Shown: positions 1,373-62,284, counted from the first letter of the stretch. The stretch is DNA of 64,000 nt from a virus (IMGVR_UViG_3300013121_000033:161160-225159); one strand, 5' to 3'. The notes: generated by a model not told the origin, from the sequence alone. A program made the numbers and translations.

Positions 1373-1713
1373 CGGTCTGTTCCCTTCGCCTTGCGCCATG
1401 CGGCGACCAACTCTTTCACTGCGGCGGCACGGGTGTACCCGAAACCGTCGTCACGCCACGTCCGGCGCTGCTGCGACCGGAGTTCGGGGATGAGATTGGC
1501 CTTCCACTCGACCGCGTAACCGATCAAACCCGTCGTGTACCGAAGCCCCTTCGGCTTCCGGCGGGATGCTTCGGAGTGCTTCTCGACGTGACCGATGAGG
1601 ACGCCGTTGAGGTACACCTCGTACCGGGCGGGCTTGTGGATCGTGTCGCCGACGGCTATGGCATATGTGCTCGGCTCGACTGCCTTGAAGATGACCGTGT
1701 CGTCGTTGTCCAT
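1369..1713 (-). CDS. Hypothetical protein (MDND cassette gene)
   Basis: ATG 6 nt after the -10 of the repeated promoter; starts MDNDDTVIFKAVEPS. Confidence 0.7.
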   Translation of the reverse strand: MDNDDTVIFKAVEPSTYAIAVGDTIHKPARYEVYLNGVLIGHVEKHSEASRRKPKGLRYTTGLIGYAVEWKANLIPELRSQQRRTWRDDGFGYTRAAAVKELVAAWRKAKGTDR

Positions 1714-1750
1714 GACCACATGGTACCGCCGACGTTATGGTCACGTCAAC
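1702..1750 (-). promoter_or_regulatory. Repeated promoter/operator cassette P1
   Basis: GTTGACGTGACCATAAC; TTGACG-18-TACCAT-6-ATGGACAACGAC. Confidence 0.8.
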
Positions 1751-1867
1751 ACTCCCGGGGTCGTGGTACGGTGCCCCGAGGTTCGTCCGAGTCGGAAGGG
1801 AGGTGGTGGTCGTGGATTGGTTCCCGCCTGGCGGCAAGTAACTGCCCCAGACGAGAGGAACTTCACG

Positions 1868-2629
1868 ATGCCCACCTACGGTGCCGCGAAGCGGCGCGAC
1901 ATGATCCGTTCCGTGCTGCCGTCGTCCCGCTATCGGACGGCGAGCGCTGACAAGCGGACGACGAATCGGCGGCTCCGCCGTGCTGTCCGCCTCAACCTGG
2001 CGCGCCTCGACGGCGACGATCTCACGGACCGCGCCTACGCGAACATCGGTGCCGCTGAGGGCTGGTATCGCCGGGACATCTACGAGATCGTGTTCGACCG
2101 CCGCCAGGGCGACAAGGCGTCGGCGCTTGAACGGTGGGCGCCGCACCAGGTGGCCCACATTCGGATCGAGGACCGGTTGTCGCGGATGGCGGCGATGCTG
2201 CCCGACTCGACGGTCGGCCGTCACGCTCTCGACCATCTGCGATGGCTGCCCGAGTTCGAGGTCGAACCGCGGTACCGGTGGCGGCCCACTCCGGAGGAAT
2301 GGGCTCGTCGGGATCGTGAAGAGTGGATCGCCGCGTGCCGGTATGCGGCGATCCGGGCGCGGCTGCTGTGGGTGTGGGACCACGACCTGATCGGCGTGTT
2401 CAACGCTCAGGTCGCGCAGGCTCCGGACATCGCTCGTGGCGGGGTCGACGACCCGGGGTATCCGCCTGTCGAGCGGCGGAACCACCACGCTGCGGTCGGG
2501 TTGGTCGACGGCGGCGGGATCGACTCGTGGCTGTGCGCGAACCTGGTGTCTCGGACGGCGTGGCGGCCGCGGCCGACGGACCTGCCGCGGCGGCTCGAAG
2601 CGTGGCTCGCTGACGTCGCCCCGTTCTAG
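1868..2629 (+). CDS. Hypothetical Arg-rich protein
   Basis: GAGAGGA RBS before ATG 1868; 253 aa protein-like ORF. Confidence 0.6.
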   Translation: MPTYGAAKRRDMIRSVLPSSRYRTASADKRTTNRRLRRAVRLNLARLDGDDLTDRAYANIGAAEGWYRRDIYEIVFDRRQGDKASALERWAPHQVAHIRIEDRLSRMAAMLPDSTVGRHALDHLRWLPEFEVEPRYRWRPTPEEWARRDREEWIAACRYAAIRARLLWVWDHDLIGVFNAQVAQAPDIARGGVDDPGYPPVERRNHHAAVGLVDGGGIDSWLCANLVSRTAWRPRPTDLPRRLEAWLADVAPF

Positions 2630-3099
2630 ACGGACCGAAGCTTCGGCGGCCGCGGTTCGTCTGCCGGTTTGCCGACGACTTCGCATCCGTCGTCACCGCA
2701 GAGGAACCCGACGCCTGTCTCCGGGTCGGGCAGGTAGAACCAGCGGGGTGCGTAACCGGTGAGGGTCGCGAGACGGCGGACGTCGTCGACGGTCGGGATG
2801 ATCGTTCCCGCTTCCCACCCGTCGACCACCGTGTCGAACGCGTCGGCGACGCCGAGCGCTTCGTCGACCTCGGGGCCTTCCATGCCGTTGAGGTCGAGAA
2901 CCATCGTGATCCGTGACGGGCTCGGCCGGTCAGCGAGCCGGGTGAGTCCACCGCGGTCCACCTGCGGGTCGACGTGAGGGACTTCGGGATGGAGGGGGAC
3001 CGGTGCTGGGTGTTCCTCGACGAGCCCGCCGCCGGGCCGGTAGCAGCGGACCCAGAGCCGACCGTGTTCGTCGCGACGCCACCAGTCCGGTTGTCCCAC
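2626..3099 (-). CDS. XRE-like HTH protein (start uncertain)
   Basis: VDEALGV...VDGWEAGTIIPTVDDVRRLATLTG resembles Cro/C1-type HTH. Confidence 0.5.
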   Translation of the reverse strand: MGQPDWWRRDEHGRLWVRCYRPGGGLVEEHPAPVPLHPEVPHVDPQVDRGGLTRLADRPSPSRITMVLDLNGMEGPEVDEALGVADAFDTVVDGWEAGTIIPTVDDVRRLATLTGYAPRWFYLPDPETGVGFLCGDDGCEVVGKPADEPRPPKLRSV

Positions 3100-3113
3100 G
3101 CCACGAAGATAGA

Positions 3114-3189
3114 TGGTGCCCCTGGTAGGACTCGAACCTACGCACGCGGCTTCGTAGGCCGCTGCTCTCTCCAACTGAGCTACAGGAGC
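3114..3189 (-). tRNA. tRNA-Arg(ACG)
   Basis: Cloverleaf; gcggc-CTACGAA-gccgc; GTTCGA T-loop; CCA encoded. Confidence 0.92.
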
Positions 3190-3190
3190 T

Positions 3191-3266
3191 TGGTGGGTCA
3201 GGTGGGGCTCGAACCCACGACCGTCCGATTAAAAGTCGGTGGCTCTACCAACTGAGCTACTGGCCC
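3191..3266 (-). tRNA. tRNA-Lys(TTT)
   Basis: ccga-CTTTTAA-tcgg; canonical D and T arms; CCA. Confidence 0.92.
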
Positions 3267-3268
3267 GA

Positions 3269-3354
3269 GGTGGGTGCGGTGGGATTCGAACCCACGAAGG
3301 CTTGCGCCGCTGGATTAAGAGTCCAGACCCGTTGACCGCTTGGGTAACGCACCC
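3269..3354 (-). tRNA. Long-variable-arm tRNA with CTT (Lys) anticodon, Tyr-like body
   Basis: GGGTGCG/CGCACCC acceptor; ctgga-CTCTTAA-tccag; variable arm cggcgcaagccttc; GTTCGAATCC. Confidence 0.8.
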
Positions 3355-3358
3355 GTGT

Positions 3359-3435
3359 TGGTGCCCCCGGCCCGGTTCGAACGGGCGACCTTCCCCTCCG
3401 GAGGGGGACGCTCTATCCGACTGAGCTACGAGAGC
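3359..3435 (-). tRNA. tRNA-Arg(CCG)
   Basis: tcccc-CTCCGGA-gggga; CCA. Confidence 0.9.
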
Positions 3436-3454
3436 GAGACTGCTGTGTTGCCCG

Positions 3455-3528
3455 CTGCGCCCCTGGGCCTCGAACCCAGAACATCCGCCTTAACAGGACG
3501 GTCCCCCTGCCAGTAGGGGCCGAGCGCA
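3455..3528 (-). tRNA. tRNA-Asn(GTT), atypical D arm
   Basis: ccgtc-CTGTTAA-ggcgg; G discriminator; G at position 8. Confidence 0.75.
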
Positions 3529-3566
3529 ATCGCTAACTGTCACACCTCCTGGTTACCGTCTCGGCG

Positions 3567-3965
3567 ATGCCCTACAAAGACCGCGAGGCGCAACGCGCCT
3601 ACCAGCGTGAGTGGATGGCGCGCCGTCGCCGCGAGTGGATCGAGGCTCACGGCCCGTGTGTCGACTGCGGGTCGTGGACCGACGACCTGGAAGTCGACCA
3701 CGCCGATCCCGCTTCGAAGGTGATGAATCCCACGTTGGTCTGGTCGCGACGAGCCGCAGTCCGCGACGCCGAGTTGGCGAAGTGCGTCGTCCGCTGCCAC
3801 AACTGCCATCTCCGCAAGACATCTCATGAGCGGGCACCTCAGCACGGAACGGACAACATGTACGGCAAACACGGTTGCCGCTGCGATCCATGCCGAGCGG
3901 CTAGGGCGAGGGCTAAGAAGGCGAATCGTGACAGACGGAAGGCGTTGGGCCTAGCCCGCCAGTAG
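3567..3965 (+). CDS. HNH endonuclease-like protein within tRNA cluster
   Basis: CVDC..LEVDH..RCHNCH motif; C-terminal HGT..Y..CRCDPC. Confidence 0.8.
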   Translation: MPYKDREAQRAYQREWMARRRREWIEAHGPCVDCGSWTDDLEVDHADPASKVMNPTLVWSRRAAVRDAELAKCVVRCHNCHLRKTSHERAPQHGTDNMYGKHGCRCDPCRAARARAKKANRDRRKALGLARQ

Positions 3966-3984
3966 ACGGCCTAAACGCCTAATC

Positions 3985-4060
3985 GGTGACCGACCGGGTT
4001 CGAACCGGCACGTCGCACGGGGACACAACCCGCGGCTCTACCTGTTGAGCTACGGTCACC
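3985..4060 (-). tRNA. tRNA-His(GTG)
   Basis: 8-bp acceptor with G-1; gcggg-TTGTGTC-cccgt. Confidence 0.88.
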
Positions 4061-5075
4061 ACGAGCGGGGCCAGACGACGAGCGAGTACGCGGTCAGGCC
4101 CCGGCGGGGTTGCGATGTCGCAGCCCGCGCCGTCGCTTTCGGCGCGCAGCAGCGTCGACAAGTTTGTCGCGGAGCGCAGCAGCGAAGGCGTCGGCGGAGG
4201 TCACGCCCGACACGGTACCGGGACAGGTGCGGCGTGTCGACCGATTTCTCGGGGTGGTGTCGGGCGCCGCGGTTCGCGCACGCCTGCTCCGTCGCCGCCA
4301 CGGCCGGGGGTGAACACGGCAACGACGGGACCGACCCGTCTCATAGATGCCACGTCTGCGACTGCGGCGGCGAGCGCAGAAAGACGGACGTCAGCGGCGG
4401 CCGGTCGGCGGGTCGCTACGGTCACGGTGACCTCGGACCCGGCTGTGAGGAACAAACGGAGCTTCGCTGCTTCGTAGCGGGGCAGCCCCTCGATGGAGGG
4501 GCGGACCGTCATCTGCTCGATCCGGCAGCCTCGATCTTGTAGACCTCGCGGAGCGGGATGCGCCACGCCTGCCGTCGCGTCACGGTCCCGTCTGCGTTGA
4601 CCGACGTGATCGTCGTCTCTTGCGGGAGTGCGGAACTGGTGTTGCGGGTCATCGCCGCGTGACGTTAGCCGCGGCGGGCGAGTTCGGCGTCGATCGCTGC
4701 GATCGCCCGGTCAGCGAACTCGGCGACTGTGACACCAGCGGCGGCGGCCCCGGCAGCGAACTGGTCGCGGCGGAGCGTGACGCGTGGTTTCGGTGGGAGA
4801 CGTGGGCGGACGGTCGGCTGTGGGCGGGTCGGCTGTGTGCCTTTCGGGGTGACCCGGCCGCCGCCTTTCTTCGGGCGGGCCATGTCACTCCACCACGGTG
4901 AGCGCGTTCGATCCGTAGGTGGCAGTCCGGTCGGTGCCGTCGATGTCGACGACCACAGACCATCCGTTGCTGTCCTCGCCGACGACACCCGTGACGCCGT
5001 CGTTGGCGACGACCCGGGTTCCGGCGGTGAACGTCTCGCGGGCGATCCGCAGGGCGCGGCGCACCTCGGGCGGGG

Positions 5076-5507
5076 TCAGTGCCCCCATGCCGCGTCCTCC
5101 GCTGCCATCGCCTGCTCCTCGCGGACCAGGCGGTCCATCTCGGCGACGTCGAAGTCCTCGACGTACTCGGGGGGTTCGTGCTTGTGGTCGGCGACACAGA
5201 ACCCGCAGACCGACACGAGCGGGTCGCCGTTGATGTCGTACTGCGTGGAGGCGAACAGGTCGGCGGCCTCAGCGACCAGTTGGGAGTGGGCGCCGATGTC
5301 GCAGGCGTCGCAGCCGCCGATGACGTTGCCGTCGATCCCGGTAGCCGCCATGGCCTGTGCGAGCGCCTTCACGGTCGGCAGGTTGGCGTGGTCGACAGCG
5401 AGCTTCGCTGCGGCGGCGCACACGGCTTCGAGGACGGAGTCGCACTGTGCGTCCGAGAGCCGAACGACCGTGTCGGAGTCCGGGGTGGTGTCGTTGTCGT
5501 TGTCCAT
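5076..5507 (-). CDS. Hypothetical protein (MDND cassette gene), two CxxC motifs
   Basis: Leaderless ATG after P2; CDAC and CGFC. Confidence 0.7.
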   Translation of the reverse strand: MDNDNDTTPDSDTVVRLSDAQCDSVLEAVCAAAAKLAVDHANLPTVKALAQAMAATGIDGNVIGGCDACDIGAHSQLVAEAADLFASTQYDINGDPLVSVCGFCVADHKHEPPEYVEDFDVAEMDRLVREEQAMAAEDAAWGH

Positions 5508-5543
5508 GACCCCACCCTACCCGAATGTTGTGGTCACGTCAAC
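5496..5543 (-). promoter_or_regulatory. Repeated promoter/operator cassette P2
   Basis: GTTGACGTGACCACAAC; TTGACG-17-TAGGGT-6-ATGGACAACGAC. Confidence 0.85.
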
Positions 5544-5847
5544 GTTTGCGGATGGTGGCGGCGAGTTCCCGCTTGATGGCGTTCAACTCGGCGAACCTGA
5601 CCATCCCGTCAGCGATCTCCGTTTCCGTCTCCCGGAGCCAGTGCTCCGACGCGGCAGGCCACCGGACGCGGTCCTGGCCGTACACAGCCACGATTGACAT
5701 GACAAGATCAACGAGCGTCTGGCGGAGAACCACGAGGTCCCTGGCCGCCACGTCGCAGGCCGCGGAGATGTCGTCGAGTTCCGAAGCCAGTTCGTCCAAC
5801 GACCACGTAGCGATCGTGTCAGCGTCCATGATCGTCCGAACCGTCAC
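5539..5847 (-). CDS. Hypothetical helical protein
   Basis: GTGA overlap with micro-ORF; its stop lies in the TTGA of P2. Confidence 0.6.
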   Translation of the reverse strand: MTVRTIMDADTIATWSLDELASELDDISAACDVAARDLVVLRQTLVDLVMSIVAVYGQDRVRWPAASEHWLRETETEIADGMVRFAELNAIKRELAATIRKR

Positions 5848-5897
5848 CGAGCCCGAGCGGCCGCCTGGTCGGTGAGAGAGATCGTGTCGTTGTCCAT
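5844..5897 (-). CDS. 17-aa micro-ORF MDNDTISLTDQAAARAR
   Basis: Leaderless ATG after P3; stop overlaps next GTG. Confidence 0.5.
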   Translation of the reverse strand: MDNDTISLTDQAAARAR

Positions 5898-5933
5898 GTG
5901 CACACCCTACGTGCCCGTTGTCGTCACGTCAAC
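5886..5933 (-). promoter_or_regulatory. Repeated promoter/operator cassette P3
   Basis: GTTGACGTGACGACAAC; TTGACG-17-TAGGGT-6-ATGGACAACGAC. Confidence 0.85.
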
Positions 5934-6183: not shown

Positions 6184-6188
6184 ATCGC

Positions 6189-6245: not shown

Positions 6246-6246
6246 T

Positions 6247-6322: not shown

Positions 6323-6337
6323 AGAGGTTGTGTGCGT

Positions 6338-6411: not shown

Positions 6412-6412
6412 A

Positions 6413-6489
6413 TGGCGCCACCGAAGGGACTCGAACCCTCGACCTTCCGCTCGACAAGCGGCTGCTCTCACCATCTGAGCTACGGCGGC
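6413..6489 (-). tRNA. tRNA-Asp(GTC)
   Basis: ccgc-TTGTCGA-gcgg; G discriminator plus CCA. Confidence 0.9.
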
Positions 6490-9926: not shown

Positions 9927-10169
9927 TCACGCGACCCGGTCGGCTCGGAGCACAGGGGCCATCGAGTAGTTGCCGAGCGGCAGGCACGTCTCGACACCGT
10001 CGCGCACCTTCACCCCGACACGACGAAGGACGCCGTTGACATCGGGGATGACGACGAACTTCGCGGTGCGGGCCTCGACGGTGACCGGGGTGCGAAGGGT
10101 GGAGTCGGTCGCCCAGCGCATCTCGTACGTCTTGCCAACCTTGAACTCGGTGATCATGTCGTTGTCCAT
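9927..10169 (-). CDS. Hypothetical small beta-rich protein (MDND cassette gene)
   Basis: Leaderless ATG after P4; MDNDMITEFKVGKTY. Confidence 0.7.
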   Translation of the reverse strand: MDNDMITEFKVGKTYEMRWATDSTLRTPVTVEARTAKFVVIPDVNGVLRRVGVKVRDGVETCLPLGNYSMAPVLRADRVA

Positions 10170-10205
10170 GCCCACACCCTACCGTTCTGTTATGGTCACG
10201 TCAAC
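10158..10205 (-). promoter_or_regulatory. Repeated promoter/operator cassette P4
   Basis: GTTGACGTGACCATAAC; TTGACG-17-TAGGGT-6-ATGGACAACGAC. Confidence 0.85.
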
Positions 10206-13560: not shown

Positions 13561-13817
13561 GCCGTCGCCTCCTGTGCGAGCTTCTTGGCGCATCGCGGGC
13601 AGAGCCGTTCGGGGTCGACCGTGTGGAGCCAGTCGTCAGCGATGGTCGCGAGTCGGGAGGCGGTGCCGCAGAGCGGAACGAGCGGCGGGAACCGATCGTC
13701 GGGCCACCGCGGAACGGGTCGGGAGACGTGGATGACGCGTCGGGCGGACTGGCCGCGCGCCGGTCGGGCCGCCCACTGGTACTCGAACGGCTCGGCGAGG
13801 TCGGGGAGTCTGCTCAT
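13557..13817 (-). CDS. Hypothetical protein with H..LCG..CPRC
   Basis: ATGA overlap with the 31-aa MDND ORF. Confidence 0.55.
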   Translation of the reverse strand: MSRLPDLAEPFEYQWAARPARGQSARRVIHVSRPVPRWPDDRFPPLVPLCGTASRLATIADDWLHTVDPERLCPRCAKKLAQEATA

Positions 13818-13909
13818 CCGTGGGTCCTTCGGTAGTGGGTCTTGTCGCCAGCGGCGATCGCCCACGACGATGGCTCGACAGCGGTGAAGGTGACGGTGTC
13901 GTTGTCCAT
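13814..13909 (-). CDS. 31-aa MDND ORF, truncated paralogue of 1369..1713
   Basis: MDNDTVTFTAVEPSSWAIAAGD vs MDNDDTVIFKAVEPSTYAIAVGD. Confidence 0.6.
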   Translation of the reverse strand: MDNDTVTFTAVEPSSWAIAAGDKTHYRRTHG

Positions 13910-13947: not shown

Positions 13948-13954
13948 ATTGTTG

Positions 13955-14000
13955 TGCGGGTGGAGGGAGTCGAACCCTCACGCCTTCCGGCGTCGACTGG
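13955..14000 (-). pseudogene. 3' half of a type II (Leu-like) tRNA
   Basis: acgcc-ggaa-ggcgt variable arm, gaggg-TTCGACT-ccctc, cacccgc-A; no 5' half. Confidence 0.6.
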
Positions 14001-14666: not shown

Positions 14667-14714
14667 GTTGACGTGACCACAACAGTCGTGTAGGGTGTGG
14701 ACATGGACAACGAC
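14667..14714 (+). promoter_or_regulatory. Repeated promoter/operator cassette P6
   Basis: GTTGACGTGACCACAAC; TTGACG-17-TAGGGT-6-ATGGACAACGAC. Confidence 0.85.
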
Positions 14715-15005
14715 ACGCTGATGCAAGCCCGGTGGGACGCCTTCATGGCGGACTGTGCAGCCGCGGCGGCCCGCGGGAAGGACTGGGACGCTGTCGGTGC
14801 GGCGTGGCGGGCCGAGCATCCCGACACCCGGTTCACCGACCTGCCCTACATGGAGCAGGTTCACCTGATCGCCGGGCTCGACGGGTTCTATCCGGACTTG
14901 ATCGACGACGCCGTGGCGGTGTTCCTCGCTGACGACGAGGACTTGGACTACGACATGGCTCTGCCGGTGGAGGCCGCGGCGCAGGCTGCCGCCAACGCCT
15001 ACTGA
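14703..15005 (+). CDS. Hypothetical acidic protein (MDND cassette gene)
   Basis: Leaderless ATG after P6. Confidence 0.7.
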   Translation: MDNDTLMQARWDAFMADCAAAAARGKDWDAVGAAWRAEHPDTRFTDLPYMEQVHLIAGLDGFYPDLIDDAVAVFLADDEDLDYDMALPVEAAAQAAANAY

Positions 15006-25131: not shown

Positions 25132-25440
25132 TCATCCACCTGCGGTGGCGCCGACGGCACGGGACCGGGTTCCCTGTGCGGGGAGTTCCTTCTCCGGTTG
25201 GGCCGCGGTCGGTGACGGGGTGTCGACGATGATGTACGTCTGCCGCTTCGGGTTGTACTTCTTGACGCGGCGGAGGCCGCTGTCCGTCTCGACGAAGATC
25301 GAGTATCCGGCGCGGAGCATGTCGCCGATGACCTGCTCGGCCTTGCCGCGTTCCTCCGGGGTGTCGCCCGTGAACGACAGGCGCATGTCGCCACGGCCGA
25401 TCGACAGGACGTCGATCACCCATCCGGGCTGGTCAGGCAT
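25132..25440 (-). CDS. Small protein ending in -AGG
   Basis: 102 aa alpha/beta protein; C-terminus RAVGATAGG-stop. Confidence 0.7.
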   Translation of the reverse strand: MPDQPGWVIDVLSIGRGDMRLSFTGDTPEERGKAEQVIGDMLRAGYSIFVETDSGLRRVKKYNPKRQTYIIVDTPSPTAAQPEKELPAQGTRSRAVGATAGG

Positions 25441-25816
25441 CGTTCTGCGCTGCCGCGAGGATGCGGTCGATCTCGGCGGCGATCAGGGCGCCTGCCTTGA
25501 CCAGGTTGCGGACCGGGTCGTCAGGGGACGGCTTCCACCAGTCGGGGTGCCACGGCCAGTTGTCGGACGGCCCGGCGATGAACTCGCTGACCTCCGAGGC
25601 TGTCGGGTCGCGAAGCAGGATCGCAGCGAACCGGGCGTAGTCGATGGCGGCGTCGACCAGTTCACCTTGAACGTGCTCGGCGTCGTGTTCGGAAGTCCAG
25701 CCCTCGACGGCTCGCTGTCGGAGACGTTCGTACTCGATCAGGTCTGCGCCGGTGAGGGGGATCATGTCGTCGATGTCGGGGATGTTCATGGAACCTTCCT
25801 CGTTGTCGTTGACCAT
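25433..25816 (-). CDS. Conserved phage protein (ER.RQ..EGWT.EHD..WPW..WWKP..LVKAGALI.AEI.R)
   Basis: Recognisable widespread phage motif; starts MVND after P7. Confidence 0.8.
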   Translation of the reverse strand: MVNDNEEGSMNIPDIDDMIPLTGADLIEYERLRQRAVEGWTSEHDAEHVQGELVDAAIDYARFAAILLRDPTASEVSEFIAGPSDNWPWHPDWWKPSPDDPVRNLVKAGALIAAEIDRILAAAQNDA

Positions 25817-28325: not shown

Positions 28326-29132
28326 TCATGGGTTCGCCCCCTTGTGCTGGCGGAGCTTGAGCGTCGAGGTGACAGAGATGACCTGACCGCAGTGATCGCA
28401 CTTCGCTCGCTTCGAGTAGTAGTGGATGCCGGAGCGGTCGTGGTCGAGGGTCCCGGAACCGGGGCAGCGTTCGGCGGCGGCCTGCGCCTGCCGGTCCCGG
28501 GCGGCTGCGAGAGCGGCGAGGAACGCCTCTTCGCCGTCGTTGAGCAGCCGTTCCGCTTGGGCCTTCGGGAACTTGAGGGGCGACCCGGTGACGGGTGCTG
28601 CGGGGAAACAGACGGTGCACAGCGTCTCACCGAGGAGAGCAACGGCGGCGGTGTCGTCGAGGCCGGACAGGTGGGGGAGCGGGGCGAACAGGGTGGACGG
28701 TCGGCACGTCTGGCAACTGCGGGTCCGGTGGACGTGCCCGGCCGACGACACGACGAGGAAGTAGCGGTTCCAGCCGGTGTAGTTCTGCTCGTGGTCAACG
28801 ATGAGGCCGTCGATCTCGGCGGCGGCGTCGCGGGCGGTGTCGTAGTCGGCGACCATCTGCGGGACGTCCCAGTAGGTGTGGGTCGGCGGCTTCGGGACGT
28901 TCCCTGCTGCCATGGCCCGGACGTGGTCGAGCATCTGGACGAGGGAGTAGAGGCTGCCGTCGGGGTGGGTGCGGTAGCCGTTGCGGCTCACCTTGGCGCC
29001 GGTGAGCGACCACAGGTTCCCGGCGGCCAATCCAACCTTGTGGTGCGCGGCGTGGGATTCGCGGAGCAGTTCGAGCAGGTGCTCGTCGTGGGCGACCTGC
29101 GCTGCCCGCTCGGTGGTGATGTCGTTGTCCAT
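28326..29132 (-). CDS. Hypothetical Zn-binding protein (MDND cassette gene)
   Basis: GHVH..SCQTC..LCTVCFP..CPGSG..CDHC; leaderless ATG after P8. Confidence 0.75.
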   Translation of the reverse strand: MDNDITTERAAQVAHDEHLLELLRESHAAHHKVGLAAGNLWSLTGAKVSRNGYRTHPDGSLYSLVQMLDHVRAMAAGNVPKPPTHTYWDVPQMVADYDTARDAAAEIDGLIVDHEQNYTGWNRYFLVVSSAGHVHRTRSCQTCRPSTLFAPLPHLSGLDDTAAVALLGETLCTVCFPAAPVTGSPLKFPKAQAERLLNDGEEAFLAALAAARDRQAQAAAERCPGSGTLDHDRSGIHYYSKRAKCDHCGQVISVTSTLKLRQHKGANP

Positions 29133-29169
29133 GCCCAACACCCTACCCGGTTGTTGGTGTCACGTCAAC
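29121..29169 (-). promoter_or_regulatory. Repeated promoter/operator cassette P8
   Basis: GTTGACGTGACACCAAC; TTGACG-17-TAGGGT-7-ATGGACAACGAC. Confidence 0.85.
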
Positions 29170-31973: not shown

Positions 31974-32324
31974 TCATCGGTCGGGTCCTTCGATGCAGTG
32001 GTTCAGAGCGGGAGTGTTCGGGTAGTCGGCCCAACGGCCGCCTGAGTCGAGGCACGCCTGACGGTCGTCGTCGTTGCTGCCGTCGCTGTCGATGGCGAAC
32101 ATGACGACTCCGGCGAGGATCATGAGGATCGAGATGACGACGAGGAGTTCGACGACCGTGACTCCGGACTGGCCGCGTGGTCGGCCGAGCAGCCGGGCGC
32201 ACCGGTCGGCGCATCCGACGGTGTCGGTACAGAACCACATGTAGTCGGCGCCGGAGCCTTGGTGGCCGACCCGGAGCCCGCCGGGCGGGTTGATGGCGCC
32301 GCACGCTGCGCAGGTGGTGTCCAT
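31974..32324 (-). CDS. Small protein with type IV prepilin-like hydrophobic segment
   Basis: QSG/VTVVELLVVISILMILAGVVMFAI after a Cys-rich N-terminus. Confidence 0.6.
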   Translation of the reverse strand: MDTTCAACGAINPPGGLRVGHQGSGADYMWFCTDTVGCADRCARLLGRPRGQSGVTVVELLVVISILMILAGVVMFAIDSDGSNDDDRQACLDSGGRWADYPNTPALNHCIEGPDR

Positions 32325-32326
32325 GG

Positions 32327-32689
32327 TCAGCACGTCTCGTCGTCGGGGACGTCGACCAGGAGGTCGGCGGGCACGTTGAAGTAGTCGACTCGGAGCGACG
32401 TGTCGCAGCCACCGAGGTTGTCGGGGCAGTAGAAGGTGGCGAACACCTTGCCGCGGGCGTGGGGGAGAGCGAACCGGGCGTCGTGGGGGATGCGCCGCGG
32501 GCTGGTCGGGTCCATGAGTACCTGTGCGCCCTTCGCGACGATGACGCGGCCGCGGGACTTGACGGGGCGGGTGCAGGTGACGGCGATCCAGCCGTCCCAG
32601 TGACCGGCGTACTGCGGGTACTGGGCGTGGGTTGCGTCGGCTTGGGCTCGGAGCCGCTGAGCGGTCGGGGAGTTGGGGTCGTTGTCCAT
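32327..32689 (-). CDS. Hypothetical protein (MDND cassette gene)
   Basis: Leaderless ATG after P9. Confidence 0.7.
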   Translation of the reverse strand: MDNDPNSPTAQRLRAQADATHAQYPQYAGHWDGWIAVTCTRPVKSRGRVIVAKGAQVLMDPTSPRRIPHDARFALPHARGKVFATFYCPDNLGGCDTSLRVDYFNVPADLLVDVPDDETC

Positions 32690-33649: not shown

Positions 33650-33979
33650 TCATGCTGGGGTGACCTCCGGGTCGGGGTGGGTGAGCATCCACAGTGCGGT
33701 GAACGCTTCGTGGATCGCTTCGCCGGGCGCGGTGTACCGGCCGAGCCCGGTTGCGGCGGGGCCGAGGACCCGCCAACCGCTGTCGGATTTCGACCAGTAG
33801 ACGGTGACGACTCGGGGCAGTTGATCGGGCTGGTGGGCTACTCGGACCATGCCGTTGTCGAGCATGCTGAGCGAGTCGATCAGCTTTCTGGCAGCGGGGG
33901 TGTTCGCTCTCCACTCGGCGACGGCGGCAGCCGCCGCTCGGATCGTGTCGGGGATTTCATCCTGCCAGTCGTTGCCCAT
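33650..33979 (-). CDS. Hypothetical protein (MGND start)
   Basis: Leaderless ATG after P10. Confidence 0.65.
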   Translation of the reverse strand: MGNDWQDEIPDTIRAAAAAVAEWRANTPAARKLIDSLSMLDNGMVRVAHQPDQLPRVVTVYWSKSDSGWRVLGPAATGLGRYTAPGEAIHEAFTALWMLTHPDPEVTPA

Positions 33980-38190: not shown

Positions 38191-38231
38191 AGCCGCTGAC
38201 GGTACCCGCAGTGTTGCCGTGGCGGCAACGG

Positions 38232-38638: not shown

Positions 38639-38721
38639 AGCTCATCTTTGTAGCCGACCGGTGACGGTGACGTGTGCATCCCCCCGTCGCTGTCCGTTCA
38701 CCTGGGTCGGGACGCGTTGAG

Positions 38722-38799
38722 GCCCCCGGGGTCACGGGACGGAACCTTCGAGGAAGTGGACAACGACCGCGTGGTTCCGCTCCCAGATCACCCGGGGGC
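38722..38799 (-). ncRNA. Candidate structured RNA (possible third guide-like unit)
   Basis: gcccccggg/cccgggggc outer stem; inner CCA-N9-TG-T-CCA-N9-AG. Confidence 0.4.
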
Positions 38800-38809
38800 T
38801 GTCGCCCAT

Positions 38810-48532: not shown

Positions 48533-50945
48533 GGGTCAGGGGGTTCCGGTGCATGGGGCGGCCCCGTAGTTCGCGAGGCCAGCGGCGGCCGCTTCCTCGA
48601 CGGTGTCGTGCGAGGAGTCCTCGCCGTCGTCGTCGACAAAGAAGCAGTCCCACCGGCCGTCGGCTCCGTGTGGTGCGATCGCGAACCGCCAGTTGTTGTC
48701 GTCGTCGATGTCGCCTTCGTACACCTCGACAGACCCGATCTCGTCGGTGACTCGTGCGATCCATCCGGCGGGGAGCAGGCGGCGCACCAGGACGAGAGCC
48801 CGGTAGACGGTCTGTTCGTCGGCAGGGACCGCGGCGAACGCTTCGAGGTCGAGCGCGACGTCGGTTGACATCGGCGGCAAGCCAGGGACGGCGACGGGGA
48901 TCGACTGGTTCACGGGGATACCACGGTGCGACCACCCCCACCCGGGGGGCAGGGTGACGACCTGGTCGAGTAGCGCGTCGGCGACACCGAAGTCCTCGGG
49001 GCGGAGGTTGACGCCGGTGATGTCGTTGTGCCAGTAGACGGTCACTCCCGCGGCGGTGTCGGCGTCGAGCGCGACCGGGTCGAACGGAGCGGTGATGTCG
49101 CCGCTGCCCTGGTCGTTCGGTGGGAACGCTCCGCGGTCGGGGACCAGCAGTTCGACGAGCCGATCGTGGAACCTGACGAGTACCTGTGCCATCAGCGTGC
49201 TTTCACTGTGAAGTCGTGATTCCAGTCGTGGGGCCACATCGGTTCGTCGGGGTGGACGGAGATGTGGACGATCTCGTAACCGAACGGCGGCGACCCGTCC
49301 CACGCCTGGTTGGCGCGGTCTGCGAGCATCCCGTCAGCGACGATCCAGGCGTCGGCCATGTTCGCGAAGATCACGGCGCGTGGCTTGCCGTCTGCCGTCT
49401 TGCCTTCGAACGGGAGCGCTTGTCGACCGTGGAAGATCAACAGGATCATGTATCCGGGACGGTTGGCCTCGGGCCAGGTGGGGTCGGTGCCCATTCGCCC
49501 ACCCTACTCGTCGTGTTGTGGCGGCGTCAACAGGCGGAGGTCGGGGCGGCCCGGGGGGCGGAGCGCTGCGAGGTCGGCTTCGAACTTCGCGACCATCCGG
49601 TCGAGCGACGCTACGATCATCAGCCGGACAGACAAGGCGGCAACGGTAGCGGTCACAACAGCGGCCAGAGTGTTCGCCCACGTCCACCACACGCTCAGCG
49701 TCCACAGGACAGCGGCCGTGGCTGCCAACGCGGCGATCACGGTGACCGCACGGGCGTTGCCGATACGGCTGGCGACAGTCACGGAGCCGCTTCCAGCGGC
49801 GGGATAAGCGTCCACCAGTCGCCGACCGTGACACGGGCCTCGCCGGGGTCGACCCAGAACGTGACGTCGACGACCGGTAGTGACCGGTGAGGTGAGGCGG
49901 CGACGGCGGATACCCACCCGTGGACCGCTGACCGGTCGTCGGGCATCGGCGCGCCGGAGGGCCGGTAGCCGGGGGTCAGCCACCGGTCGCGGCCCACGGT
50001 GGTGAGCTTCGCGTTCCTCGTGCGGGGAATGGGGCCGTCCCAGTGTGCGACCCACCCGCGGGAAGCGAGTTCGTCGAGAGCGCGGGATACTCGGGTCGTG
50101 AACGGCCAGAACGGTTCACCGAGCCGGTGGCGGGCGATCAGGACTTCGAGAACGAGTTCCGCTGTCGGCGACACATCCGGTTCGACGTCGTCGGTCATGA
50201 CGTCGGGGCGTCGAGTTCGGCGAGCAGCGCGACGATGATCTCCGGGGCGGCGGCGATCATCGCCTTGTTCGCTTCGTTCCCCAGGTGCTCGGGCCAGTCG
50301 GTCACGGTTCCTCCGTGGTGCGGGCGGTGAGGCGGGCTTGGATGCGGCGCCGGAGGTTGGCCCGCCATGCGGCACGGTTCCACGCGGCGTTCGCTTCGGG
50401 AACGGTCGAGTGGATGTCGGCGGCGAGGCGGGTGCCGTCAGCGGGGCCGTCGTCCCATGGTGCGAGGGCGGTGTCCATCAGAACGGTTCGCGGTCGGGGA
50501 GGCATCCGCCGATGTGCCCGGCGTACAGGGAGCAGCGGTAGGCGCGGCCGTCGTCGAGGATGGTGAGGGGACAGGTCGGCCAGGTCCGATGCTGTGGCCG
50601 GACCTCGGGGTTGAGGTGGAAGCGGTCGTAGTCGCCGCCGGTCTGTGCGGTGCAGCGGATCAGTTCCCAGTCGGATGCGACAGCACGGACGGCGGCGTCG
50701 ATCCGTGCGAGGTCGACCGCTGCGACGCGTGGGGTGAGTCCGACGAGGGACGCGTTGGTGACGCGGCAGACGACGGTGACGGTGCGTTCGCCGCGGTCAC
50801 CGGCGAGGCCGGGGGACAGGTCGATGAGCGGCGCGAGGACCGCCGTGGCGACGTCGTTGTCGACGCCGTCAACGAGCGACGGGTGCGTGTACGTCGCGGT
50901 GGCAACTATCTCGGGCATGGGCGTTGCTCCTGGGTGGGCCTGGGG

Positions 50946-51752: not shown

Positions 51753-52647
51753 TGGCCTCTCCCGGTGACGGCGGCTTGGTAGGCGGCGACCCCGGTCGGG
51801 TAGACGCCGGTCGACTCGGTGACGTCAGCGTCGTCGTCGATCGGGGTGTACTCCCACGTCCAGGTGCCAGCATCGTGCATCACGGCGACGTAAGAGCCGT
51901 CGGGGAGGATCGCGACGACCGTCCCGTAACCGTTGGCGTTGAACTGTGTGACGGTCCCCTCGGGGGCGACTCGTTCGATGTCCTCTGCTGCGGCCGTGCA
52001 CAGGACCAGTTCAGGGTTGTGGCGCCTGATGCGCTCGACGACCGCGGCGTACCGGTCGCGGTCGACCAGCAACGATTCGACTTCGTCAGCGGTGAGGTCG
52101 CCGCCGACGAGTTCGTCGTCGCTGCGGAGACGGTCGATCAACATTTCGACTTCGCTGGTCGACGGCCCGGTCACCAGGTCGCCCCTTCCGGGACCGGAGC
52201 GTGCTGTGTCTGCCACGAGATGACCTCGGGTGCAGGGATGCCGTGCCGTTCGATCAGGTACCGCATCCGGGCTTCCATCGCGTCGAACAACCGGGCGACG
52301 TCCGCCTCGGGCAACGGGTCACTGTGCGACCACGAGAACCCGATGTCCGACGGCCACGCCTTCGCCCGCACCCGTTTCGACACCCGCCCCGCGCCGATCC
52401 TGAACCGGATCACACACGACCCGAGCCACACCTCCGGCATCGGCACACGATCATCCGGCGGACACGGCAACCAGTGGAACGGAACATGCGTCGCCGTGAA
52501 CGACCCGCCATCCACCACAGCGAACCCCGACACCGGCACCCGAACACCCGAACCCATCCCGAACCTCCGATGCCGATGCCGACCAGTCCCCTCCCCCCGG
52601 CCACAGCGTGATGCGGAACACGGCAACCGGAAGGGAGGGGACCAGAC

Positions 52648-52682
52648 CACCCAACCTACCGTCACGCTAACGCCACGTCAAC
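52648..52682 (-). promoter_or_regulatory. Divergent promoter cassette P15
   Basis: TTGACG-17-TAGGTT; GTTGACGTGGCGTTAGC. Confidence 0.55.
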
Positions 52683-59232: not shown

Positions 59233-59700
59233 ATGAGCAACACTGTCACCGTCATTGGCAACTGCACGAGAGCGCCGGAGTTGCGTTTCACCCCGGCAGG
59301 GTCAGCGGTCGCGACGTTCGGGATCGCGGTCAACCGCCGGTGGAAGAACCGGCAGACCGACGAGTGGGAGGAAGCGGTGTCGTTCTTCGACGTCATCGCG
59401 TGGCGCGAGTTAGCCGAGAACATCGTCGAGTCGGTCGACAAGGGAACCCGGGTCATCGTGACCGGGCGCCTCGACCAGCGCACCTGGGAGACACAGAACG
59501 GCGAGAAGCGCTCCAAGGTCGAGGTCGTCGCGGACGAAGTCGGAGCCAGCCTCCGGTACGCAACCTGCACCGTCGTCCGCAACGAACGCCGCGACCCCCG
59601 AGACGACGGACGACAGGCCACCGCCACCCGACCAGCCGCCGCACCCGCTACCGCACCCGCCGCCGATCAAGGCTGGGAGTACGACGACGAACCCTTCTGA
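59233..59700 (+). CDS. ssb: Single-stranded DNA-binding protein
   Basis: VTVIGNCTRAPELRFTP.G..FFDVIAWRELAEN..KGTRVIV.GRL; acidic DDEPF tail. Confidence 0.95.
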   Translation: MSNTVTVIGNCTRAPELRFTPAGSAVATFGIAVNRRWKNRQTDEWEEAVSFFDVIAWRELAENIVESVDKGTRVIVTGRLDQRTWETQNGEKRSKVEVVADEVGASLRYATCTVVRNERRDPRDDGRQATATRPAAAPATAPAADQGWEYDDEPF

Positions 59701-61182
59701 GGGCTCACCCTCTACTTGAAGGTCACCGTGTTCCTGTCTTTCAAGTAGCGACCCCCACTCGGTGTGAAGGAAAGGTTGAGATAGATGGCGATGATGGTTG
59801 AAGTGGCGAACGTCGCAGTCGACGTGCAGTCGATCCGGGCAGTCAGGGTGGTGCCGGACTGGTTCATCGCGCCCGCCGTAAACCCACGGGTCACGGTCGA
59901 GGTTTTGTTCAACGACAGCGGTTGGGTGACGCTCGGCAACTACGCCGAGGACATAGCGAGGCAGGTCGCGCGGCGGCTCGTCGCCGAGAAGGAATGGCCG
60001 GTCGGTTCGGAGGTCGTGTGGGACGGCACCGCTGCGGGCGCCACTCGGATCATCGACATGGTGTTGAGCCTCGGGGAGCACCGCGACGACGGGCCGGTCG
60101 TGTCCTACGACGACAGCGGCGACCGGCCGAGACTCTGGGTCACGAACCCGGACGGCACCGAGTACATCGTGACAGCACGGAACGGGTTGATCCGCAAGTT
60201 CCCCGAAGTGTTCACCCGGCACCCGTAACACGGGTCTACCTTCCAGTTCCGCTAACCAGAGAGGACCCCACCCATGGGCAAGTATCGTGAGACGTTGACG
60301 TTCGATGTCGAGGCCGCCGAGTGGACCGGCCGCAACTCGGCTGAGGTCGCCGCAGTCGTCGGCGGTTCGGTGACCGTCGCGCCCGACGGCACCTTGACGT
60401 TCACCGACCGCTCCGACCCGGCGGCGGTTGATGTCGAGGTGAAGCAGGGAGATGTCGTCGTCCGCTACCTGACCGGCCAGGCCAGGATCAAGGTGATCTC
60501 CAAGGACGAGTTCCACCGGGCGTTCACGAAGGTGAAGCAGCCGAAGGCGGGGTCCGACGTGAAGGCGGCGACGGCGACGTGACTACCGACCCGGGCGCGC
60601 AGCCAACACGGGTGCGGCGCATCCCGAAGATCGGTCACCACGACCACCGGGACCCGCGGTACTGGTGGGCGTGCGACCACCCCGACCGTCCAGCGGACGA
60701 ATGGGTGCACTGGAAGTACGCGTGCCCGGACTGCCGCGCTCACATGGCGAGAGTTCTCGTCACCCAAGGCGACGGTCCCGTCGGCGAATCCGAGGAGAAC
60801 CCTGAGGGGACGCTGCTCGCCCTGTGCGCGATCGTCGCGGCCCACTGGAACGACGACTACCTGTTCCGGGCGATCCAACATGCGCGCCTCGCGCAGAACC
60901 ATCCGAGGGACCAGTGATTCGCCCGACCTCACCTCCGGGGACGACGGCGGCACGTCGCGGTGCCGCCGTCCGGTTCGTCGAAGAGATCGTCGCCGCGGGC
61001 GAGCGGGGCACCTGGTTCGAGTGGGATGGGCCGGTGAACCGCAACGTCGTCACGCGCCGCGCTGAACAGGTCGCAGCGGCAGCGGGAGTCGAGTTGGTCG
61101 TCGAGCTATGCCCCGTCACCCCCGGGGCCGCGGAGACGCACTACAGGTTGAAGGGGCGGCTCAAGATCATGGAGACGAGGGA

Positions 61183-62247
61183 GTGAAGTTCGTTGTCGAC
61201 CGCGGGGAACTGGCCCGAGCCGTTGAGGTGACCGCCCGTTCCGACAGCATCCCGCTGTACGCGGCGACCGCCCCCGATGGCGTCATGCTGATCGGCGACG
61301 ACGACGTCACCCGAGTCTCGACCCGTGTCGCGTGCCATGTCGATGGTGACACCGGTCGGGTGCAACGACTCTCAGCGATGCGGTTCCCTATCGTGTGCCG
61401 CCACCTCCCGAAGGGTGACGTCACGGTGGACGTCACCGACCATGCGTGGACATTGACCGTCGACGGCGTCACGACTGTGCGGGTCCCGACACGGCCGCCT
61501 GACGGGTTCGCTGCACTCCCGCCGTTGCCGCTGGTCGGGGTCATCGGCCGTGACTTCACGAACGCGGTCAAACGGGTCCGGGTAGCGGCCGCACCGTTCC
61601 CGCCGCTCGCAGTTGTCCGCCTCGAAACGTCAGGGGACCGGCTACGTCTCGTCGCCACGGACCGGTACCGTCTCCACGCTGCGGAGGTCCGCTGCGAATC
61701 CCTCAACCTTGACAGCACACCGCTCATCCCGGCGGCGTCGGCGGGTGCTGCGATGTCGGCGTTGACCAGTGGGCTACCGATCGACTTCCGCGCAGACGAC
61801 ACCCAAGTCGAGTTCTCTGACGGGACCACCACAGTCCGTGCCCGCCTCTCCCACGAGCCGTTCCCCGACTTCTCGCCGCTGCTTCGCGTCGACCCCGAAG
61901 TCGCGGCGTTCCTTTCCCCGAAGGCGTTGCTCGCCGCGGTCACGAACGCGTCGCGCATCCTCGGTGAGAACGACCGGTGCTTCCTCACGTTCCGGCCAGA
62001 GTCGGCCCTCATCGACGTCGAAGCTCTGGCGACAAGCACCGACATGGAGTACCGGACGTCGGTCGAAGCCGAGTCGATCGAGGGCGTCGAGATGACCGTC
62101 GGTGTAGCGCCACGCCGCGTCATCGGTGCGTTGCAGTCCACACGCGCCACGCAAGTCGAGGTTGACTTGCACGGCGAGTTCGGGCGGATCGTCTTCCGTA
62201 ACCCACGCGCTCGGGTTCCGTTTGCTGTAGTCATGCCGGTCCGCTGA
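61183..62247 (+). CDS. dnaN: DNA polymerase III beta sliding clamp (divergent)
   Basis: MKFVVDRGEL..LVATDRYRL..RL..FPDF..VVMPVR; 354 aa. Confidence 0.85.
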   Translation: MKFVVDRGELARAVEVTARSDSIPLYAATAPDGVMLIGDDDVTRVSTRVACHVDGDTGRVQRLSAMRFPIVCRHLPKGDVTVDVTDHAWTLTVDGVTTVRVPTRPPDGFAALPPLPLVGVIGRDFTNAVKRVRVAAAPFPPLAVVRLETSGDRLRLVATDRYRLHAAEVRCESLNLDSTPLIPAASAGAAMSALTSGLPIDFRADDTQVEFSDGTTTVRARLSHEPFPDFSPLLRVDPEVAAFLSPKALLAAVTNASRILGENDRCFLTFRPESALIDVEALATSTDMEYRTSVEAESIEGVEMTVGVAPRRVIGALQSTRATQVEVDLHGEFGRIVFRNPRARVPFAVVMPVR

Positions 62248-62254
62248 CAGCGAC

Positions 62255-62284
62255 GTTGCTTTGGCGACAACACTCGGGTAGTGT
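62255..62284 (+). promoter_or_regulatory. Divergent promoter cassette P16
   Basis: GTTG-N9-CAAC; TTGCTT-17-TAGTGT. Confidence 0.5.

Follow-up and report, generated by a model that had tools for sequence, protein, structure and literature searches.

The record under study is the 225,159-bp genome of an uncultured phage with a high-GC (actinobacterial-type) host, and the window is the 64,000-nucleotide stretch of it analysed here. A profile built from the cassette copies themselves gave 28 full-length matches to one promoter cassette in the 225,159-bp record at a cut-off of E < 1e-4, confirming the repeat that a sequence-only reading of the window had described and proposed to scan for genome-wide. 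The profile scan placed 15 full-length cassettes and one degenerate copy at 62.26 kb (E = 0.02) in the window (Table 1), and at 46.67 kb of the genome one box serves two divergent cassettes. The consensus is GTTGACGTGACCACAAC, 7-8 nt, TAGGGT, 6-8 nt and ATGGACAACGAC. Sites like ATGGACAACGAC (at most one mismatch) number 14 in the window, where 0.44 would be expected, and exact GTTGACGTGAC occurs 13 times. In this one phage a near-perfect host-type promoter recurs about 28 times. Searches of viral, metagenome, genome and cultured-phage collections found no related genome with the cassette. No RNA sequencing run contained the phage, and the one DNA run with part of it yielded contigs of low coverage only.

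Table 1. Cassettes and related sites in the window (ATG positions are on the strand given).
Coordinates	Strand	Element	ATG	ORF	Remark
1702..1750	-	Cassette; box GTTGACGTGACCATAAC, -10 TACCAT, ATGGACAACGAC; MDND	1713	1372-1713, 114 aa	GC3 0.82
5496..5543	-	Cassette; consensus box, TAGGGT; MDND	5507	5079-5507, 143 aa	Stop of upstream gene is the first TGA within the box
5886..5933	-	Cassette; MDND	5897	17-codon mini-ORF 5847-5897, then 96-aa gene	
10158..10205	-	Cassette; MDND	10169	9930-10169, 80 aa	
13898..13947	-	Cassette; -10 TACAGT, 18-nt spacer; MDND	13909	13817-13909, 31 codons	ORF is a truncated paralogue of ORF 1372-1713
14667..14714	+	Cassette; consensus; MDND	14703	14703-15002, 100 aa	
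25805..25855	-	Cassette; near-palindromic box GTTGACGCCCCGTCAAC, TAGGGT, ATGGTCAACGAC; MVND	25816	25436-25816	Stop of upstream gene is the TAG of the -10
29121..29169	-	Cassette; MDND	29132	28329-29132, 268 aa	
32678..32725	-	Cassette; full consensus; MDND	32689	32330-32689, 120 aa	Top profile score
33968..34016	-	Cassette; -10 TAGGTT, ATGGGCAACGAC; MGND	33979	33653-33979	
38213..38229	-	Variant box, perfect 7-3-7 palindrome GTTGCCGCCACGGCAAC			Followed by TACCGT, 8 nt, ATGAGC: leaderless-type start without MDND
38810..38826	-	Box-only site GTTGACGTGGTGGCAAC, no -10			
40881..40929	-	Cassette promoter (box, TAGCAT) without the +4..+12 block, ATGCGTCCCGGG; MRPG	40892	40515-40892	
44637..44687	-	Cassette; ATGGGCAACGGC; MGNG	44648	43812-44648, 279 aa	
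45597..45644	+	Cassette; ATGGGCACCGAC; MGTD	45633	45633-45953	
49483..49531	-	Cassette; box GTTGACGCCGCCACAAC, TAGGGT, ATGGGCACCGAC; MGTD	49494	49195-49494	
52640..52682	-	Box GTTGACGTGGCGTTAGC and TAGGTT, without start codon			Predicted transcript: long GC hairpin first, then GT-rich tract
62255..62311	+	Degenerate copy; GTTGCTTTGGCGACAAC, TAGTGT, then ATCGACAACGAC within 5' UTR			ATC replaces ATG; Shine-Dalgarno-led ATG at 62330, 30 nt on, in frame

The sequence-only reading had counted about 16 copies, compared with the 15 full-length and one degenerate given here; its list missed the copy at 49.5 kb and wrongly included 38.8 kb, where the box lacks a -10 and GTGGACAACGAC, in non-coding DNA, is on the other strand. 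Three further sites were right in part: the promoter at 40.9 kb is present without the MDND block, that at 52.7 kb has box and -10 without a start codon, and the weak copy at 62.3 kb is degenerate, with its ATG lost and the block in a 5' UTR. The N-termini at the window cassette starts are MDND (eight), MGTD (two) and one each of MVND, MGND, MGNG and MRPG. The residues after MDND are rich in Thr, Asp, Pro and Glu.

Judged by its hexamers and spacing, the cassette is a SigA-type promoter, as had been proposed. The -35 is TTGACG in 25 of 26 copies, the exception (TTGTGG) belonging to the reverse member of the divergent pair; 18 copies have a 17-nt spacer and eight an 18-nt one; and the -10 is TAnnnT preceded by G, with T, A and the final T invariant. 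The start codon, ATG with a single GTG, follows the -10 by 6 nt in 17 copies, 7 nt in five and 8 nt in four, with C favoured at -1. This distance of 6-8 nt implies leaderless mRNAs, which we infer to have the A of the ATG as their first base, in keeping with the geometry first described. The ORFs opened by these ATGs have a coding-type GC3 of 0.82-0.94, and frames entering from upstream are closed by stops within the cassette. Since the upstream gene stops inside the cassette or at most 5 nt before it in nine cases, the cassette forms a compact gene junction. The copies have no conserved hairpin beside them, information content ahead of the box is at background level, and terminator-like structures are no more numerous than in shuffled sequences. 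Sigma70_r2, Sigma70_r4_2, T7-type RNA polymerase and Rpb2 had no match in the record.

The 17-bp box is a 7-3-7 quasi-palindrome with six of eight symmetric pairs in the consensus, and all eight in the boxes at genome 156888 and window 38213-38229. Its left half-site is the -35 hexamer, the AA of its right half is invariant, and the ideal symmetric form would be GTTGACG-N3-CGTCAAC; there are 65 occurrences of GTTG-N9-YAAC, with 6.7 expected. This symmetry suggests that a putative dimeric regulator probably binds the box over the -35. A screen of the record for a few HTH and sigma families revealed no box-binding protein, HTH_17 or sigma factor; HTH_3/HTH_31 genes were confined to 24.2-24.7 kb, within a module (1-36 kb) devoid of cassettes, with a weak HTH_3 match at window 2737-2826.

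Conservation does not end at the start codon. Positions +1..+12, counted from the A of the ATG, carry 1.3-2.7 bits, the same degree of conservation as the -35, compared with about 0-0.2 bits in the box-to--10 spacer. As the sequence-only reading had stated, the conservation extends 12 nt into the coding sequence, and it drops abruptly at +13/+14, with 0.2 bits at +14. The block at +4..+12 opens 21 of 26 cassette starts and only 1 of 37 other leaderless starts (Fisher P = 5e-11), and it is absent from all 283 other genes, none of which has the promoter box. The proteins behind the window cassettes are mutually unrelated, as had been noted, except for the pair of ORFs at 1713 and 13909. The first four codons (Met-Asp-Asn-Asp) of otherwise unrelated genes are set by the cassette.

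An unlikely reading is that the block has no function of its own and that the cassette with its first codons was spread or homogenised as a homology unit for illegitimate or recombinase-driven gene placement. It is consistent with the strict linkage of block to box, with the genes behind the cassettes being mostly ORFans of unrelated sequence, with the compact junctions, and with one cassette-plus-gene duplication in which one copy is truncated (ORFs at 1713 and 13909). There is also a precedent in the PeSL (promoter-early stem-loop) cassettes of T4-type phages, promoter repeats proposed as modular gene-shuffling units (PMC2839356, PMC4122927). However, divergence has brought the spacer and most of the discriminator down to background but has spared +4..+12, a pattern that argues for position-specific selection rather than recent copying or conversion, and the longest identical runs between copies are only 12-18 bp. 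The conserved +1..+12 beside an uninformative spacer indicates that the copies are old and that +4..+12 is under selection. Furthermore, homology alone cannot account for the A-rich, G-poor skew in the unrelated codons 5-7 (+13..+21; A 0.30 vs 0.19, G 0.17 vs 0.27-0.28), which fades after +22.

Selection could also act on the peptide, with MDND serving as a sorting, packaging, stability or modification tag of a class of phage proteins. (M/V)DND stands exactly at the N-terminus of 16 proteins in the genome, eight of them in the window, and the residues that follow resemble a flexible tag. Nevertheless, the block variants include no synonymous change and 13-15 non-conservative ones, the single-base replacements being D to G (five), D to V (two), N to T or S, and, at codon 4, D to G; none of the cassette copies shows D to E. 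Methionine excision rules mean that Gly or Val at position 2 alters N-terminal processing relative to Asp, and the variants that carry them would differ accordingly from MDND. The motif opens none of the 283 genes without a box. In the UvrD-like helicase MDNDI directly precedes the conserved TPTDEQ motif, yet none of 43 inspected homologues starts with MDND. Two cassette ORFs have just 17 and 31 codons, and in two degenerate copies (genome 76527 and window 62300) the block is kept although the ATG is lost, so that it is untranslated or upstream of the working ATG. We regard the N-terminal tag, one of the options first raised, as quite improbable, chiefly on account of the non-conservative replacements, the absence of the motif away from the box and the helicase homologues.

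The folding predictions point to the RNA instead. The predicted cost of unfolding nt 1-13 was 2.3 kcal/mol for cassette mRNAs and 4.5-4.8 kcal/mol for controls (P = 7e-4, 1e-4). Putting codons 2-4 from other genes into cassette mRNAs raised the predicted cost to 4.25 +/- 0.58, none of 200 such swaps reaching the observed low value, and putting GACAACGAC into 255 other genes lowered it by 1.3 kcal/mol (P = 6e-10). None of the block's Asp/Asn codons ends in T (0/62 vs 3.6 expected, P about 0.025). Previous work reported that leaderless initiation depends on an accessible +1..+13, AUG and zero leader nucleotides (PMC8459731) and that leaderless translation is enhanced by CA repeats just past the start (PMC9031893). 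In this phage the other 37 leaderless genes lack comparable accessibility and the A-rich, G-poor skew, and leaderless translation here therefore does not require either. The consensus 9-mer ranks within the best 4.4% of codon-usage-weighted 9-mers for predicted accessibility, which leaves its exact sequence unexplained, about 4% of random codon triplets being predicted to do equally well.

A block acting at the DNA level, as an extra half-site for the box-binding protein or as a downstream contact for a factor joining the polymerase at these promoters, appears decidedly unlikely. In its favour are a direct repeat, ACAAC(G), shared by the right half of the box and +5..+10, the strict association with the box and the persistence of the block without an ATG. 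However, the offset from block to ATG is constant, but variation in the two spacers puts the box anywhere from 28 to 31 bp from the block, which is awkward for a two-site protein; the skew to +21 is unlike the signature of a binding site; and the screen of a few HTH and sigma families yielded no candidate protein in the record. The 12-nt 5' end might also be a trans address for a phage antisense RNA or RNA-binding protein, with all cassette mRNAs silenced or stabilised together after the early phase, a reading that we consider very improbable. The block is class-specific, and on the transcribed strand a single reverse copy, GUCGUUGUCCAC, lies in non-coding DNA at window 38756-38767, with 11 nt complementary to the common 5' end, in the apical part of a long hairpin that adjoins the box-only site. 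Against this, the site is the only one of its kind, and its fold has only a modest advantage over shuffled sequences (z = -1.8). A transposase-like gene lies next to it, of whose element it may be a part, and a discrete RNA from it is a conjecture only.

The explanation we favour, as somewhat likelier true than false, is that the roughly 28 cassettes are strong promoters read by the host, whose +1..+12 is kept as a nucleic-acid element of a leaderless mRNA. Host RNA polymerase with its primary sigma (SigA/HrdB-type) would read them, each cassette standing at the head of a transcription unit in the phage's non-structural arm, and transcription would begin at the A of the ATG, with the first gene translated from a leaderless mRNA. 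The element would comprise +1..+12 (AUGGACAACGAC) and the A-rich, G-poor stretch to about +21; it would sit in the ribosome at leaderless initiation and also be the initially transcribed sequence during promoter escape, so the 12 bases would have to stay open for ribosome and polymerase. It may have been kept for being unstructured in any gene context and made of the phage's most-used codons, Met-Asp-Asn-Asp then being a by-product of selection on the RNA and not a peptide signal. The box most likely doubles as an operator through which a dimeric regulator controls the whole class together. Among the roles first offered for the block, an element of leaderless translation or initial transcription agrees best with the predicted accessibility, the skew to +21 and the lack of T-ending synonymous codons. 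The translation and escape roles are not separable, both spanning +1 to about +20, and we infer both this function and the early timing of the cassettes. The 40.9 kb copy, a promoter without the block, is evidence against the proposal. If it is true, any gene behind a cassette would be expressed at a set, high level.

Actinobacterial SigA/HrdB-type leaderless promoters are known from Mycobacterium, Streptomyces and Corynebacterium (PMC4633059), and in Deinococcus-Thermus the -10 lies directly before ORFs (PMC12340547). Like the cassette, the actinobacterial promoters combine TTGACN, 17/18 nt, TAnnnT and a start 6-8 nt on without a Shine-Dalgarno sequence. The cassette differs from ordinary leaderless promoters in being one sequence present about 28 times in one phage, with conservation covering the spacer half-site and the first 12 bases, which those promoters do not share. 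It resembles the PeSL cassettes in placing a conserved promoter repeat, here a presumed early one, before many small ORFans (PMC2839356, PMC4122927) and in its stop-to-promoter packing. Unlike PeSLs, it has no stem-loop or terminator and belongs to another host and promoter type, its genes are leaderless, and the repeat extends into the coding sequence. The SAS/ESAS of Cluster K mycobacteriophages are likewise actinophage repeats at the starts of unrelated gene families, found at 11-19 genes, partly combined with 17-bp inverted repeats and suspected of an unproven role in translation initiation (PMC3203893). However, SAS precedes the start codon, where it overlaps the ribosome-binding site, and does not serve as a promoter (PMC3203893), whereas the cassette combines a promoter with the opening four codons of leaderless genes. 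The Cluster O mycobacteriophage repeat TGTTCGG-N3-CCGAACA is a 17-bp, 7-3-7 dyad like the box, with over 30 copies in each genome and a dimeric DNA-binding protein that is so far only presumed (PMC4351075). Those sites lie mostly off promoters, whereas here the left half-site is the -35 in every copy. The N25-type early promoters of coliphage T5 are highly conserved and have efficient initial transcribed sequences. Both these promoters and the synthetic 'fore-cistron' leaderless designs in Corynebacterium glutamicum (PMC10367133) resemble the cassette in using a fixed 5' segment for gene-independent output; those segments are leadered or engineered, whereas the one described here is natural, 12 nt long and becomes the native N-terminus.

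The promoter cassette consists of a 17-bp box carrying the -35 element, a -10 element and, a few nucleotides on, an ATG with the three codons that follow. Searches confirmed that it is truly repeated: when up to one mismatch was allowed, the window gave 14 occurrences of ATGGACAACGAC (0.44 expected), and it contains 13 exact ones of GTTGACGTGAC. The copies were aligned, and a profile built from them was searched against the whole record (225,159 bp in IMG/VR, the window being bases 161,160-225,159), giving 28 full-length matches at E < 1e-4, 15 of them in the window, and an additional degenerate copy at window 62.26 kb. A start codon stood at the expected position in 26 copies. The sequence-only reading, which had listed about 16 copies, was thus nearly right, though it overlooked the copy at 49.5 kb (MGTD); its copies at 40.9 and 52.7 kb are present but lack the MDND block and the start codon, respectively, and that at 62.3 kb is degenerate. 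Its 38.8 kb site was rejected as a cassette, being a box without a -10; the GTGGACAACGAC found there is on the other strand, within non-coding sequence. A consensus promoter scan, tuned to E. coli TATAAT, missed TAGGGT and picked up just two of the six cassettes within the first 20 kb; terminator-like sites were no more numerous than in shuffled sequence.

The -35 is TTGACG, followed by a spacer of 17 nt (18 copies) or 18 nt (8 copies) and a -10 of the form TAnnnT, usually TAGGGT with a G just before it. The ATG lies 6 nt (17 copies), 7 nt (5) or 8 nt (4) past the -10, with C favoured at -1, and the frames opening there show the coding signature of the genome (GC3 of 0.82-0.94). This geometry matches an actinobacterial primary-sigma promoter whose transcript is predicted to start at the A of the ATG, so that the earlier proposal of a promoter driving leaderless genes is well supported by the sequence. 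Neither a sigma factor nor an RNA polymerase of T7 or multisubunit type was recognised in the record, and host RNA polymerase is therefore the likely reader. The box contributes two TGA stops and the -10 a TAG, so that no frame stays open when the gap has its common length of 7 nt. Upstream genes terminate inside a cassette in six cases and at most 5 nt before one in three others, indicating that the cassette is also a very compact gene junction.

As had been proposed, conservation reaches 12 nt into the coding sequence. Relative entropy was 1.3-2.7 bits at each position from +1 to +12 and fell to 0.8 at +13 and 0.2 at +14, while the gap between box and -10 (7-8 nt) gave about 0-0.2 bits, with 0.6-0.7 at the inner positions of the -10. 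Unconstrained positions have thus reached background while the block at +4 to +12 is kept, which argues for maintenance by selection rather than recent copying. The proteins behind the block are unrelated: all-vs-all comparison of 26 cassette proteins gave a single related pair, the ORFs at 1713 and 13909, of which the second is truncated to 31 codons. Of 20 cassette proteins compared with Pfam models, just two were recognised, a UvrD-like helicase and a DUF3560 protein; one further protein is YodL-like. In the helicase, MDNDI stands just before the conserved TPTDEQ motif, and none of the 43 helicase homologues inspected starts with MDND. The block was present in 21 of 26 starts with a box against 1 of about 37 other genes of the phage that have TAnnnT 6-8 nt ahead of the start codon but no box, here called box-less leaderless genes (Fisher P = 5e-11), and at the start of none of 283 other called genes. 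By its distribution, the block appears to be a property of the promoter and not of the proteins.

Two of the options raised earlier for +4 to +12 were a nucleic-acid element and an N-terminal peptide tag. Variants of the block are single-base changes that turn D into G (five cases) or V (two), N into T or S, or D into G at codon 4; no D-to-E or synonymous change was found among them. The lack of synonymous changes (0 of about 14, with 1 in 9 expected by chance) is a count without power, while the amino-acid replacements are non-conservative. Furthermore, no T-ending codon occurs among the 62 Asp and Asn codons of the block, against 3.6 predicted from genome usage (GAT 7.1%, AAT 3.1%; P about 0.025). 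At genome 76527 and window 62300 the block is kept although ATG has become ATC, and the usable start is an ATG further on, led by a Shine-Dalgarno sequence. These three observations make the peptide tag less likely. Phage-encoded tRNA-Asn and tRNA-Asp read the two codons of the block (Table), a match that may be coincidence given the 15 tRNA genes in the window alone.

For leaderless reporters, the initiation region was delimited to +1 to +13, and efficiency depended on AUG identity, on how accessible the start is and on having no leader nucleotides (PMC8459731); CA repeats past the start are listed as enhancers in a review (PMC9031893). With the measure of the former study, the cost of unfolding nucleotides 1-13 within the first 50 nt, cassette mRNAs had a predicted cost of 2.3 kcal/mol, against 4.5 for other leaderless genes (P = 7e-4) and 4.8 for other gene starts (P = 1e-4). 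Swapping the block for codons 2-4 of other genes raised the mean to 4.25 +/- 0.58, with 0 of 200 trials as low as observed, while placing GACAACGAC into 255 other genes lowered the cost by 1.3 kcal/mol (P = 6e-10). The consensus is composed of the two most biased codons of the phage and ranked in the best 4.4% of 450 codon triplets weighted by codon usage. Codons 5-7, otherwise unrelated, are enriched in A (0.30 vs 0.19) and depleted in G (0.17 vs 0.27-0.28), and the skew stops at about +21. A constrained zone from +1 to about +21 fits both the mRNA bound by the ribosome at initiation and the initially transcribed stretch that controls escape from the promoter. Box-less leaderless genes show no such skew, so leaderless translation as such does not depend on it here; its confinement to the cassette class is expected if a tightly bound consensus promoter needs help with escape, or if the class was selected for maximal output. 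With moderate confidence, we consider it most likely that the 12-nt extension acts at the nucleic-acid level, in translation start and/or promoter escape. Pairing with 16S rRNA as a "downstream box" was considered as another reading and set aside, that model being regarded as refuted.

We regard it as improbable that the shared 12-nt 5' end, AUGGACAACGAC, serves as a class-wide post-transcriptional address read by one trans-acting phage factor. Such a factor would switch translation or stability of about 25 leaderless mRNAs off (or on) together, and the regulon would then be defined by its first four codons and not by an operator. Candidates would be an RNA-binding protein or the antisense loop of a hairpin at window 38.70-38.80 kb. 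This hairpin follows the 38.8 kb box, and the plus-strand ORF there is non-coding.

With 6 of 8 pairs symmetric, the box, GTTGACGTGACCACAAC, forms a quasi-palindrome of 7-3-7 layout, and two perfect palindromes occur (Table). Its right half contains an AA that varies no more than the TT of the -35, and to our knowledge RNA polymerase does not read this region of the spacer; the natural reader would therefore be a putative dimeric DNA-binding protein. Because its site contains the -35, such a protein would cover that element and could provide class-wide shut-off, or assistance. Two cassettes standing back to back at genome 46.67 kb share one box, and their proteins are not DNA-binding (one YodL-like, the other without a confident model). 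A search of the record for regulators, covering a few HTH and sigma families, recognised no HTH_17 protein or sigma factor and gave no candidate box-binding protein.

The window has 68% GC, and the record's WhiB-family genes suggest that the host is an actinobacterium. An activated-sludge metagenome DNA run covers part of the window (share 0.21); its contigs, all short, match the window exactly and show no variants at cassettes. No RNA run was listed as containing the sequence. No close cultured phage or other contig was found in the collections searched: megablast with 7 kb of sequence gave no match, the portal protein no relatives, and blastn of the whole cassette against cultured phages E = 4. 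The box, box plus -10, -10 plus coding block and whole cassette gave only single chance-level matches in viral, metagenome and genome contigs. The best full-length matches of the UvrD-like helicase had 40-47% identity (52% in a shorter partial match); at the one viral locus among its relatives, the helicase is Shine-Dalgarno-led and there is no comparable repeat.

Table. Positions of features in the window and elsewhere in the record
Position	Strand	Feature	Reading
Window 3454-3528		tRNA-Asn(GTT)	
Window 6413-6489		tRNA-Asp(GTC)	
Window 5847-5897	-	Cassette drives 17-codon mini-ORF ahead of longer gene	
Window 13817-13909	-	Cassette drives 31-codon mini-ORF ahead of longer gene	Truncated paralogue of 114-aa ORF 1372-1713
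Window 13950-13975	-	tRNA T-arm/3' acceptor-like fragment (GGTTCGACTCCCTCCACCCGCA) ending 101-codon ORF just before cassette; no tRNA called by ARAGORN	Possibly attachment-site remnant
Genome 128240, 159555, 186975 (window 25816)		(C/G)GACGC(C/T) abutting ATG in 3 of 4 cassettes with 8-nt discriminator	Suggests sub-family, or start 1-2 nt upstream of ATG
Genome 156888		Box copy, perfect palindrome	
Window 38213-38229		Box variant, perfect palindrome	
Window 38700-38826	-	Box-only site at stop of transposase-like gene (38822-39682, phrog_4285), then long hairpin (-56 kcal/mol, z = -1.8)	Apical part reads GUCGUUGUCCAC, antisense to common 5' end of cassette mRNAs
Window 52380-52682	-	Cassette promoter without start codon; predicted transcript opens with long GC-rich hairpin (GGUCCCCUCCC ... 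GGGAGGGGACUGG), then unusual ~150-nt GT-rich tract	Candidate non-coding RNA or regulatory leader
Genome 21918, 34588, 43889	-, +, +	Leaderless promoter class GTCACACCC-N6-TAnnnT	Probably later temporal class
Genome 51349, 56144, 66384	-, -, -	Leaderless class CTGAC..CCCAC..(A/G)CATACTTG(A/C)C, directly preceding giant structural genes	Probably later temporal class
Genome 1-36,000		Resembles complete small temperate phage: terminase (phrog_9), tail genes, probable serine recombinase, divergent HTH_3 pair (24.2/24.6 kb), three WhiB genes; genes Shine-Dalgarno-led, cassette absent	With next row, could be phage within phage or chimeric assembly
Genome 48-76 kb		Second capsid/portal set	
Genome 32178-32380		Five copies of GTCACCCC-containing repeats in ~200 bp of small-phage module	May be iterons or binding array

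The cassettes offer a natural experiment, in which one 12-nt 5' end precedes many coding contexts alongside about 37 leaderless genes without it, and which bears on what beyond a 5' AUG sets the production and translation of leaderless mRNA in high-GC Gram-positive bacteria. Should the block act in the proposed way, it would give actinobacteria a compact expression part that insulates against context. For annotation, it cautions that a common N-terminus can come from a promoter and not from a protein signal.

Repeated phage promoters and leaderless genes are each known, and the promoter and leaderless design of the cassette is ordinary in actinobacteria and their phages. We found no published account of promoters whose repeats dictate how unrelated genes begin, here the first four codons of about 25 proteins. 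The two cassette-driven mini-ORFs resemble the leaderless short first cistrons of mycobacteria. PeSL cassettes of T4-type phages also place repeated promoters, early ones in their case, before ORFans (PMC2839356, PMC4122927), but the present cassette has no stem-loop. Cluster O phages carry a 17-bp repeat of the same 7-3-7 form, with a presumed dimeric DNA-binding protein as its reader; its sites, unlike the box, lie mostly away from promoters (PMC4351075). The nearest actinophage parallel is the start-associated sequences of Cluster K, a repeat that accompanies start sites of genes without sequence relationship (PMC3203893).
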